Positions 5,658-8,607 of a DNA stretch of 64,000 nucleotides are shown piece by piece. A program made the position numbers and the translations under genes. Source of the stretch: an uncultured delta proteobacterium. GTDB taxonomy: Bacteria > Desulfobacterota > Binatia > UBA9968. Location of the stretch: NCBI GenBank assembly GCA_963727625.1, contig CAVSHR010000012.1, forward strand, positions 224,001-288,000. Reading direction: 5' to 3'. Numbering within the stretch: position 1 is the stretch's first letter; each line of letters begins with the position of its first letter. The notes beneath the pieces are model-generated. The model saw nothing but the letters and a program-made list of their open reading frames with translations. It ran no database searches and was not told the DNA's origin.

Positions 5658-8356
5658 TGGTTCATGCTCCGCTCCGGGATCGCATCGAACCAGCCGCGCC
5701 GCACCAGCCACTTCACCAGCTCGAGAACCGGAAAAATGCTCGCGGCTACGCCGAGCAAAACCGCCCACTCGGCCGACGATAAACTCGACGTGCTCAGCGG
5801 CCGCTGCAAAAACGGCGCATAAACAACCGCTGCGAGTAAAACGATTTCCCAGGCGACGGACAGGTTTAACCATTTGTTGCTGAACGGTCGACGCAGCACC
5901 GAATGGCGATCCGAACGATAGTTGTAGGCTTTGAAAAACTCGATGAGCGTGAGACCGGCAAACACCATCGTCATGGCCTCTTCGAGGCTTCGCCCCGAGT
6001 TAAGCGCCCAGCGAAACATCGTCAGATTCACCAGCGCCGACCAAAGCCCGCCGGCGAGCATCAGGGCGACGACGGGCCGGGTAAAAATTCCCCGCCTCGG
6101 ATCGCGCGGTTTTCGCCGCATGAGATCTTCTTCATGGGGATCGACCGCGAGCGCCAATGCCGGCAATCCGTCGGTGGCGAGATTGATGAAGAGAATCTGC
6201 ACAGCGGTGAGCGGCAACGGCCAACCGAGAATCGTCGCACCCCCGAGCACGAGGATTTCCCCTAAATTCGAAGACAAAAGAAACATCAGATACTTCTTGA
6301 TGTTCTCAAAAACTGCCCGGCCCTCTTCAACCGCGGCGACGATGGAGGCAAAGTTGTCGTCGGTCAACGTCATGTCCGCCGCTTCTTTGGTGACATCGGT
6401 GCCCGTGATCCCCATGGCGACGCCGATATCGGCCTTCTTGAGTGCGGGCGCGTCGTTGATGCCATCACCGGTCATGGCGACGGATTCACCGCGCTTCTGC
6501 AGCGCCGTTACGATGTTGAGTTTATGCGCCGGTGAGACCCGCGCGACTACCGTGAGATTCTCCACTTCCCGTTCCAGTGCTTCGTCGGATAACGCGTCGA
6601 GCTCAGCGCCGGTGACGACCTTGCCGTTGGCGAGCATGCCCAACTCTCGCGCCACGGCGCCGGCCGTGAGCGGATGATCACCGGTAATCATCATAGTGCG
6701 AATGCCGGCGCGCGCGCAGGTTTTGATGGCGGCTTTTGCCTCCGGTCTGGGCGGATCGATCATGCCCACCAAGCCAAGAAACACCATGTCCCGTTCGGCG
6801 TGTTCGAGCTCCGCGTCAGGCTTGTACGCCACCGCTAAAACGCGCAGCGCTTCTGCCGCCATCTGCCTGGCGATCTGCACGACTGACTCGTTGGCCGTAG
6901 CGTCTAACGGCACGACCCCGTCCTCGCCCTCGACCCGTGCGCAGGAGTTGAGAACCACCTCGGGCGCGCCCTTGGCGTAAGCGACCGTTCCACCGTTAGC
7001 TGCGTGCAGCGTCGTCATCCGTTTCGACTCCGAAGTAAAGGGTATCTCGTTTACCCGAAGAAATTTCGCGTCGAGCTCGGCCTTATCGAATCCGGCCTTA
7101 GCCGCGGCCACCACCAAAGCGGCCTCGGTGGGATCGCCTTTGATTTTCCAGCCATCATGCTCCGTGTCGTGCATTAACTGCGCGTCCGAGGCCAGAGCGC
7201 CGGCTTGTAACAGCAGCGCCAGCGGGCCGCGCGGCTCGACACCGCGGTTGTGATCGGTAAATTCGCCTTTCGGCTCGTAGCCGCTGCCGGACACGGCGAT
7301 CATGCGTCCGGCGACGAGCATTTTCCGCACGGTCATCTCATCTTTGGTCAACGTGCCGGTCTTGTCCGAGCAGATCACCGACACGCTGCCGAGGGTTTCC
7401 ACGGCAGGGAGCCGACGCACCAGCGCGTTGCGCCGCGCCATGCGTTGCACGCCGATGGCGAGCGAGATGGTCACGACAGCGGGCAGAGCTTCGGGAACCA
7501 CCGCGACCGCCAGCGCGATGCTAAAAATGACCATGTCCAGCAAGGGCTGGCCGCGCAGCAATTCAAGGCCGGCGACCAAGACGACGATCAGCAAGGCGGC
7601 TTGAGCCAGGGTTTTCCCCACCCGATCGAGATTTTTTTGCAGCGGTGTTCTGCCGGTCTCAAGAGTTCGCAGCGACTCGGCGATCTGGCCGAACTCGGTC
7701 TTCATCGCGGTGGCGACGACCACGGCGCGGCCGCGCCCATAAGTAACCGTCGTGCCGGCGTAAACCATGTTATTACGATCGGCGATCGCCAGCTTGCCCG
7801 CTTCGAGAGCCGCAGTCTGCTTTTCCACGGGCATGGATTCGCCCGTGAGCACCGCCTCGTCGCATTTAAGATTGACCGCGTCCACCAGCCGTCCGTCGGC
7901 GGGAACCTTGTCGCCGGTGCGCAGAAAAACAATATCGCCCGTGACCACTTCGCGCGCCGGGATGCTCTGCTCCAGGCCGTCGCGCAGCACCGCCGCAGTG
8001 GGTGCGGACAGTTGGCGCAAGGCGTCGAGAGCGCGCTCGGCGCGATATTCCTGGTAAAATCCCAGCCCCGCCGCGAACAATACAATCACCGCGATGGCGA
8101 GAGCCTCGATCGCATGACCGAGCAACGCCGAGAGGACGATGGCGCAGAGCAGGATAATGATCAGAACGTTCTTGAACTGCTCCAGCAAAATCGCCCAAGG
8201 AGAGACCGGCGGTGCCGCCAACAGCTCGTTGGCGCCATGGCGAGCCAGACGGCGGCGCGCCTCCGCCGCGCTCAGTCCGGTCGCAGCGTCGCTGGCCAAT
8301 TGGCGCAACACGGCGGCGACATCGCTCTCATAGGGCTGCCGGTCCGTCATGGTCAT
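5654..8356 (-). CDS. P-type cation-transporting ATPase (type IIA, Ca2+-type)
   Basis: [51 protein letters not shown]. Confidence 0.95.
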
Positions 8357-8520
8357 TTATTTTTCGTGTTAGCGGTTCCATCCGTATTCTTGCGTCGATC
8401 CTCGACGTCACAAGCACCGGACATTCACGTCGGCACACCGAGGCGCGGCAGCACCCAACGCATGAGCACGATGTAAACGGCGAAGAATATAATGAACCCC
8501 AGCCATTCGGGCATAGTCAT
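8353..8520 (-). CDS. candidate 55-aa membrane selenoprotein (in-frame UGA at codon 32); missing from the ORF track
   Basis: [65 protein letters not shown]; final TGA overlaps the ATPase ATG; SECIS-like hairpin after the UGA. Confidence 0.72.
8389..8414 (-). promoter_or_regulatory. bacterial SECIS-like hairpin
   Basis: CUUG-UGA-CGUCGA-[GGA]-UCGACG-CAAG; apical loop starts 24 nt after the in-frame UGA (8425-8427). Confidence 0.62.
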
Positions 8521-8607
8521 TTCTCCTTTCTATTAACGACCGCTCATCCCGCGCCTGAGAAATTCGTACGGCGAGGGCAATTTTTTGGCTACGCTTTTGC
8601 TGCGATC

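Follow-up and report, generated by a model that had tools for sequence, protein, structure and literature searches.

A putative single-helix membrane selenoprotein encoded between RND transporter and P-type ATPase genes in an uncultured member of the Binatia

The window analysed here is a stretch of 64,000 nucleotides (nt) from an uncultured delta proteobacterium (Desulfobacterota; Binatia; UBA9968), positions 224,001 to 288,000 of contig CAVSHR010000012.1, and all coordinates given are those of the window. On its minus strand, between genes for an RND transporter and a P-type ATPase, lies a small open reading frame (ORF) with an in-frame TGA and a hairpin 3′ of this codon, which is very probably a selenoprotein gene. 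A hidden, single-helix membrane selenoprotein had been proposed here in a preliminary description of the sequence, the coordinates of which are correct for the ribosome-binding site, the ATG at 8520, the in-frame TGA at 8427-8425, and the ATGA overlap with the ATPase gene. Pfam annotation also agrees with the TolC-membrane-fusion protein-RND genes reported upstream and the P-type ATPase downstream, all on the minus strand. The features of the locus are listed below; residue numbers throughout are those of the 55-residue form starting at ATG 8520, and U stands for selenocysteine (Sec).

8353-8514, minus strand: most likely coding sequence, 53 codons (MPEWLGF...TKNK) and the final TGA, with Sec as codon 30
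8518-8520, minus strand: alternative in-frame ATG, giving 55 amino acids (aa) with Sec as codon 32; its Shine-Dalgarno (SD) spacing of 2 nt is short
8523-8526, minus strand: SD core GGAG, 8 nt ahead of ATG 8514 and 2 nt ahead of ATG 8520
8425-8427, minus strand: in-frame TGA (U32), putatively read as Sec and conserved among homologous loci
8410-8412, minus strand: TGT codon of Cys37, the candidate partner of Sec in U-x4-C
8440-8508, minus strand: predicted transmembrane helix, residues 5-27, from an AlphaFold2 model on a 123-row alignment
8393-8407, minus strand: core of a hairpin of the selenocysteine insertion sequence (SECIS) type, with a 6-bp stem, CGUCGA (8407-8402) and UCGACG (8398-8393), and a GGA loop (8399-8401)
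8389-8414, minus strand: lower stem, CUUG (8411-8414) and CAAG (8389-8392), which pairs in the window and leaves UGA 8408-8410 unpaired
8353-8356, minus strand: ATGA overlap of the small-gene stop (TGA 8353-8355) and the ATPase start (ATG 8354-8356)
5654-8356, minus strand: downstream neighbour, a type II P-type cation ATPase of 900 aa (Pfam E1-E2_ATPase, Cation_ATPase_N, and Cation_ATPase_C)
8608-11973, minus strand: upstream neighbour, an RND transporter of the AcrB/AcrD/AcrF family (Pfam ACR_tran, E 7e-151)
11823-12983, minus strand: membrane-fusion protein, upstream
12980-14320, minus strand: OEP outer-membrane factor, upstream
4659-5873, minus strand: Na/Ca-exchanger-like protein, downstream of the ATPase (longest ORF)

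The GGAG core, at 8526-8523, is part of GAAAGGAGAA (8530-8521, minus strand). The ATG at 8520, from which a protein of 55 aa had been predicted, is in frame, but the likelier start is ATG 8514, which gives 53 aa. Of 74 homologues, 69 have an ATG placed 29 codons ahead of the Sec or Cys codon; its equivalent in the window is ATG 8514, and SD-like words are found within 22 nt upstream of this ATG in 68 of 74 homologous loci. It is most likely that translation starts at ATG 8514, and possibly at ATG 8520. Past the TGA the frame reads M-S-G-A-C-D-V-E-D-R-R-K and continues to the TGA at 8355-8353. The motif had been given as U-x3-C; the sequence is U-M-S-G-A-C, hence U-x4-C.

The AlphaFold2 model is a single helix with a low-confidence tail, the block-mean predicted local distance difference test values being 76, 89, and 72 over the first 30 residues and no higher than 59 after these (overall mean 67.9). 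Directly after the helix is the conserved stretch W-V-L-P-x-[LF]-G-[VI]-P-T-U-M-S-G-x-C, and K, D, E, S, and T residues are plentiful in the tail past the TGA. In 105 of 117 family members, the 15 residues that follow the helix contain Lys and Arg more often than those preceding it, which, based on the positive-inside rule, suggests that the motif and the tail face the cytoplasm.

Evidence for the TGA as a conserved, functional position comes from comparisons between homologues. A six-frame search was made of 40 genomes from the same order, 24 of the same genus and 16 of the order's two other families. Half of the same-genus genomes (12 out of 24) have a strong match with exactly one in-frame TGA; among the 16 genomes from the other families, no match is better than E = 0.147. 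In 13 loci (L022-L034) the TGA is kept without exception, with the alignment continuing through it. The window's genome has a single copy of the gene, and some same-genus genomes have paralogous TGA copies, for example three matches in G022 and two, 3.5 kb apart, on contig C28 of G019.

A scan of a species collection, with one genome per species, matched 116 stretches, 106 of which were confirmed and 79 retained as distinct loci. These have TGA in 72 cases and TGC or TGT at the same codon in seven. Record titles assign the loci to Candidatus Binatia, to metagenome-assembled genomes (MAGs) of Deltaproteobacteria/Thermodesulfobacteriota, to Rokubacteria, to Chloroflexota, and in many cases to Acidobacteriota, including Pyrinomonadaceae, Blastocatellia, Bryobacteraceae, Terriglobia, and Solibacteraceae. 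Another 80 loci, fetched from metagenomes as Cys forms, have TGC or TGT at the Sec codon, and in the 123-row alignment the column of position 32 is invariant (U/C). Homologues with Cys or TGA at this codon and with conservation past it, which the preliminary description had put forward as a check, therefore exist, as the 72 TGA forms and the Cys forms with M-S-G-x-C.

Protein databases give a similar picture. A profile search of 1.84 billion representatives returned 522 matches (clusters at 50% identity) with E ≤ 0.001. Among the best 150 of these 522, Cys is at the Sec position in 88, of which 84 have a further Cys five residues on; 40 proteins end exactly ahead of the Sec position, in agreement with the expectation that gene callers would truncate this gene; Trp is present in 14 and Gly in two; and in six there is another residue or a pattern that does not fit. 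Several of the entries with Trp at this position have further Trp residues in over-long tails (P0005, P0007, P0008, P0018, and P0038 among the Trp/Gly entries). Based on the protein letters, the Trp and Gly entries are probably due to translation of TGA under code 4 or 25 by metagenome gene callers. In 63 Cys forms that were hand-picked from the profile matches (alignment A3), G28, T31, C32, and C37 are invariant, and L19, W22, L24, P25, M33, S34, and G35 are each present in at least 90%. The second Cys, Cys37, is kept in 63 of the 72 Sec forms.

A word-index search identified 1,311 relatives among clusters at 90% identity, all of which carry the source-given name 'hypothetical protein' and none a precomputed Pfam domain; 75 of the 114 new entries from this search end at the first UGA. 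When a natural Cys-form relative was used as an atlas query, a 'hypothetical protein' cluster commonest in Planctomycetota was returned with a score of 0.86, too low to be more than a lead. The family is large, with most members of the Cys-x4-Cys type and a soil-bacterial branch of the Sec-x4-Cys type.

The reading frame past the TGA is open for at least 15 codons in all 73 Sec forms (median 24.5). Of the two other frames, +1 is closed within the same 15 codons in 17 of the 73 and +2 in 49. In 26 of 72 homologues the final stop shares nucleotides with an ATG or GTG, as ATGA in 17, GTGA in seven, and TGATG in two. In the window, no SD-like word lies close ahead of the ATPase ATG and, together with the ATGA overlap, this suggests co-translation of the small gene and the ATPase gene.

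The preliminary description had reported a 3′ hairpin with a G-initiated loop 24 nt downstream of the UGA. This hairpin is present, and its core is conserved with covariation in the TGA forms. In the window, the loop starts 24 nt past the UGA (23 intervening nt), the hairpin with its flanking stem starts 10 nt past it, and RNAfold gives exactly this fold with the flanking CUUG/CAAG. When 73 Sec forms were aligned, RNAalifold predicted five core pairs. For a helix of seven pairs, 88.6% of cells pair, two-sided changes occur at five pairs (47 cells, compared with 15.2 in shuffles), and the covariation score is 0.267 as against 0.155, a value reached by none of 500 shuffles; slid controls, in which the 3′ partner is moved by one to three columns, score no higher than 0.120. 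For the six-pair core, 94.3% of cells pair and two-sided changes are seen at four of the six pairs. For example, U-A is replaced by C-G where GUC...CGA (Val...Arg) has become GCC...CGG (Ala...Arg); since the 3′-side change from CGA to CGG is synonymous, it serves the RNA and not the protein.

The hairpin also goes with the TGA. All five core pairs are present, at fixed positions, in 64 of the 69 Sec forms without insertions or deletions, compared with four of 80 distinct Cys forms, and the Cys forms with hairpin remnants are those most like the Sec forms (e.g. L067 and L094). In three Sec forms, 6 nt are deleted in frame from the interval that separates TGA and hairpin, the loop then following after 17 intervening nt. 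The family's loops (GUC and GGA) and their distance from the UGA fit the bacterial SECIS (bSECIS) model as given in PMC13188914, in which a small hairpin lies 16-37 nt past the UGA and its apical loop carries G in the first two positions. The lower stem, CUUG/CAAG, which had been included in the proposed element, does not hold as a family feature; only 50.9% of its cells pair across the 73 sequences, and it is a lineage-specific or chance pairing. There is no T-run after the hairpin, a promoter and terminator scan reported no terminator at it, and a scan of 8250-8650 against Rfam gave one chance-level match only.

The machinery for Sec insertion had been named as a further check, and all four components, selA, selB, selC (tRNA-Sec), and selD, are present on contig C5 of the window's genome (98% complete, 15 contigs). 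The tRNA-Sec scores 76.7 bits and has the anticodon TCA; selA, selB, and selD score 607.5, 397.5, and 377 bits, respectively. The three protein genes adjoin (715.1-719.5 kb), with the tRNA-Sec gene approximately 50 kb away. The selD gene (contig C5, approximately 718.5-719.5 kb) is itself that of a selenoprotein, with one in-frame TGA (G-U-A-A-K) and, 33 nt past this UGA, a hairpin with a GUC loop closed by A-U. This is the loop type of most members of the small-protein family. Among relatives, selB exceeds the cut-off in 36 of 41 genomes (all 22 of high quality are among the 36), and in three of three further genomes with Sec forms. It is over the cut-off in four of seven genomes with Cys forms, which thus occur both with and without selB. 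A search of the window's genome for a Sec-containing formate dehydrogenase gave 22 weak TIGR01553 matches, all of which are under the cut-off and lack a TGA; other selenoproteins must account for the retention of the Sec trait in this organism.

Based on the TGA and Cys homologues, the covarying hairpin, and the Sec machinery, which together strongly support the proposal of a hidden single-helix selenoprotein, it is very probable that this is a genuine selenoprotein gene, in which UGA 8427-8425 is decoded as Sec within a single-pass membrane protein. Translation would start at ATG 8514, or possibly 8520; the hairpin at 8407-8393 would recruit SelB and tRNA-Sec for the decoding of UGA 8427-8425; and translation would end at UGA 8355-8353, on the start codon of the ATPase gene. 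The product would have 53-55 residues, with one transmembrane helix, the conserved motif, and a short, charged, disordered tail.

Several observations weigh against this interpretation. The suggested folding of the region reproduced the hairpin, but did not find it to be more stable than chance would allow (z-score -1.31; 23 of 200 shuffles were equally stable). In the window's own genome, comparable hairpins (a stem of at least 6 bp and a loop of 3-5 nt with G in the first two positions, at a distance of 16-37 nt) are found behind 2,559 of 67,167 (3.8%) TGA-terminated open frames. The window hairpin alone is thus not beyond chance, and the case rests on the comparison with relatives. In this comparison, the GGA loop of the window is in the minority, GUC being that of most relatives, and, since the sequences are related, the counts overstate the independent support. 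Two of the 12 same-genus carriers of the TGA form, G009 (93% complete) and G019 (91% complete), yielded no selB. The same-genus copy L034 (unpublished genome G005) has lost 1 nt from the interval separating TGA and hairpin, so that the hairpin is kept and the downstream frame is changed. Misassembly or decay of this copy could explain the loss, or else the RNA may be of greater importance than the tail. The GC content of the tail by codon position (0.60/0.49/0.51) is atypical for coding sequence, that of the N-terminal part being 0.57/0.40/0.71. The second Cys is absent from nine of the 72 Sec forms, so that a Sec-Cys redox pair cannot be a full explanation. Gene neighbourhoods also vary widely, the commonest neighbour, DUF302, which has no known function, being present in only a quarter of loci.

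It could be argued that the gene simply stops at the first UGA and encodes a hydrophobic peptide of 29-31 residues, the hairpin being a regulatory or coupling RNA and the ATG after the UGA perhaps opening a second mini-ORF. Public gene calls do end at this point (40 of the best 150 representatives and 75 of 114 new word-index entries), and TGA-ATG is nearly invariant among the Sec forms. Sec insertion is usually inefficient, so the truncated peptide is probably made as well, which counts in favour of this explanation. Set against these points, the Cys forms are one continuous ORF through the position with M-S-G-x-C conserved, and the Met past the codon is therefore a protein residue rather than a start; in two Sec forms (L082 and L111) it is replaced by ATA or ACA. 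The hairpin accompanies TGA (64/69) and not TGY (4/80), it has neither a T-run nor a reported terminator, and none of the 73 frames closes within 15 codons past the TGA. Termination at the first UGA is thus considered very unlikely to be the whole function of the locus. Even harder to believe is a UGA read as Trp or Gly under an alternative code, or a chance ORF or decaying pseudogene. The 14 Trp and two Gly entries among the best 150 representatives would fit such a code; the extra Trp residues in the tails of several of them, however, look as if every TGA had been called as Trp, homologues have Cys and not Trp at the position, and in the window's genome TGA is a stop, including at the end of this very gene, and the full Sec machinery is present. 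Retention of the TGA in 72 distinct loci over several phyla excludes decay or chance.

Another explanation accepts the selenoprotein and follows the preliminary description in tying it to one of the two flanking transporters, as a single-helix accessory or redox switch dedicated to the RND pump or to the P-type ATPase; AcrZ, KdpF, and sarcolipin would be peptides of comparable action. In the window the gene does lie between both transporters, with its stop overlapping the start of an ATPase gene that has no close SD-like word; the order RND-small gene-ATPase recurs in the same-genus locus L042 and an ATPase follows in L044; and efflux-type neighbours are frequent, HlyD-type fusion proteins in 6/72 and ABC ATPases in 6/80. 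Neighbours were compared across 159 loci, with the window left out, a neighbour being the closest ORF of 90 aa or more that lies on the same strand, up to 300 nt away; 72 downstream and 80 upstream neighbours were scored, and the upstream list comprises 25 Pfam families. Families given below for one side only are not listed for the other.

DUF302: downstream 18/72; upstream not among the 25 families listed
Rhodanese: downstream 3/72; upstream 9/80
Thioredoxin: downstream 3/72; upstream 2/80
Acetate kinase: downstream 6/72
HlyD-type fusion protein: downstream 6/72
YgaP-like transmembrane protein: downstream 3/72
TauE: downstream 2/72
P-type ATPase: downstream 2/72
ABC ATPase: upstream 6/80
Phosphorylase-like: upstream 6/80
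zf-HC2 anti-sigma: upstream 6/80
Metallo-beta-lactamase: upstream 5/80
Pyr_redox_2: upstream 4/80
Usp: upstream 4/80
ArsR: upstream 4/80
RND (ACR_tran): upstream 3/80
OsmC: upstream 3/80

With RND transporters directly upstream in only three of 80 cases and P-type ATPases directly downstream in two of 72, and with many unrelated neighbours (acetate kinase, DUF302, phosphorylase-like, and rhodanese), gene order gives no support to the view that the small protein is a subunit dedicated to either transporter. The role that had been proposed in these transporters is accordingly not upheld, and a transporter accessory is regarded as unlikely.

For the favoured selenoprotein, the neighbourhoods point in a different direction. 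In one representative of the rhodanese cluster, a metallo-beta-lactamase and a rhodanese are fused, an architecture described for bacterial persulfide dioxygenases in the abstracts of PMC9163753 and PMC12934615. A search for longer homologues, in which 8,000 candidates were scored, found three, all with a thioredoxin domain. Two 171-aa proteins (P0268 and P0269) are clean fusions, with the helix, C-M-S-G-x-C, a linker, and a complete thioredoxin. P0267 and P0076 are also fusions of the module with thioredoxin, which may be read-through or frameshifted gene calls. The recurrent DUF302, rhodanese, and thioredoxin neighbours, together with the thioredoxin fusions, suggest a thioredoxin-linked selenol/thiol redox module at the membrane. 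Tentatively, the function might be that of a membrane-tethered module for selenol/thiol redox or sulfur handling, recycled by thioredoxin. In such a module, U32 and C37 would form a selenylsulfide, or serve as carriers of sulfane sulfur or of a soft metal ion, and the module would act in stress-response gene clusters (thiol, sulfane-sulfur, or oxidant stress).

A bolder version, which is rather doubtful, would make this the smallest bacterial selenoenzyme-like device, a Sec-x4-Cys dyad at the inner membrane face that thioredoxin would recycle and that would detoxify oxidants or sulfane sulfur close to the membrane, with downstream translation being selenium-dependent. Given the overlap of stop and start codons (ATGA in 17/72) and an ATPase gene here without its own SD-like word nearby, UGA decoding could make translation of the downstream gene depend on selenium. 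If true, the protein would be comparable in function with SELENOK/SELENOS of eukaryotes or with lipid protection of the GPx4 type.

The family was compared with those already catalogued. The window protein matched no family in NCBIfam (release 20, June 2026) or Pfam up to E = 10. In the same databases, none of ten Cys-form relatives had a match over the cut-off for the module or one below E = 0.049; a thioredoxin domain was over the cut-off in one fused form. The comparison with existing selenoprotein hidden Markov models that had been called for has thus been run, and no NCBIfam or Pfam model matches. The suggested link to DUF2892/YgaP did not survive, there being no Pfam match to PF11127 for Sec or Cys forms. 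Nor did either form give a Pfam match over the cut-off to the FeoB-associated Cys-rich membrane protein. In a 2026 inventory of 119 prokaryotic selenoprotein families (PMC13188914, Table 1), all entries but one are tied to a domain model and no single-helix U-x4-C family is among the 119. Likewise, none of the nine new families named in passages of the deep-Sep paper (PMC12013277) resembles this one. Literature searches returned no description of the family, although an unnamed listing in survey supplements (e.g. Table S2 of PMC12013277) would escape them. Based on sequence comparison, this would be a new selenoprotein family, without a Pfam or NCBIfam model, within a well-known kind of system.

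The gene resembles known bacterial SelB/SECIS-dependent genes, as described in PMC13188914, in its in-frame UGA, its 3′ hairpin, and its pairs of Sec and Cys homologues, and further in the Sec machinery of the genome and the truncated public annotation. It is unlike catalogued selenoproteins in having no thioredoxin-like or other known fold, but one membrane helix and a short tail, and in a U-x4-C spacing where known selenoproteins usually have UxxC or CxxU. The catalogued relatives in kind include the MerT-like mercuric transport protein (PF02411), the SO_0444 Cu/Zn efflux transporter (NF033936), TsoA with its LULAXC motif (NF045695), and a small dual-CXXC protein (NF041197), all from Table 1 of PMC13188914. 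These and the present protein are small and/or membrane-bound with Sec beside Cys, and probably have soft-metal or redox chemistry in common, although motif and architecture differ. The DUF2892/YgaP-like transmembrane domain (PF11127) is similar in being a small membrane protein with a conserved Cys, near rhodanese-type genes; it has two helices, whereas there is one here.

SELENOK and SELENOS are short single-pass membrane proteins with Sec in a disordered cytosolic tail and with thiol-redox partners. The likeness, by analogy only and with no relationship detected by Pfam, is in the single-pass size and in Sec lying beyond the helix; here Sec is right at the helix end and the SECIS is of the bacterial in-frame type, whereas in SELENOK and SELENOS Sec is near the C-terminus. 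AcrZ with AcrB, KdpF, and sarcolipin or phospholamban with P-type ATPases are single-helix accessory peptides of transporters. The small protein is like AcrZ, KdpF, and sarcolipin in size, in its single helix, and, in the window, in being flanked by an RND pump and a P-type ATPase; peptides of this type, however, are not known to have a conserved Cys/Sec motif, and the adjacency to transporters is not conserved in the present family (3/80 and 2/72).

To our knowledge, single-helix selenoproteins without a globular fold have until now been a eukaryotic theme. With this family, the bacterial selenoproteome would gain a widespread member, in Acidobacteriota, MAGs labelled as Binatia and Deltaproteobacteria, Rokubacteria, Chloroflexota, and Planctomycetota, the Sec forms of which public annotation systematically cuts off after 29 residues. 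In this family, which has no known function, the chemically active site would be marked by the Sec/Cys position, and experimenters have handles in the U/C-x4-C motif, in the fusions with thioredoxin, and in the neighbouring DUF302 and rhodanese genes.

Two further observations concern the surrounding genes of the window. A 580-aa protein (14391-16133, minus strand) has a partial match only, to the glycogen phosphorylase family; since homologues of this protein lie directly upstream of the small gene in six of 80 other loci, the RND operon of the window looks as if it had been inserted between the usual neighbours. The longest ORF of the Na/Ca-exchanger-like gene (4659-5873) overlaps the end of the ATPase ORF by approximately 220 nt, and its true start is probably farther downstream.

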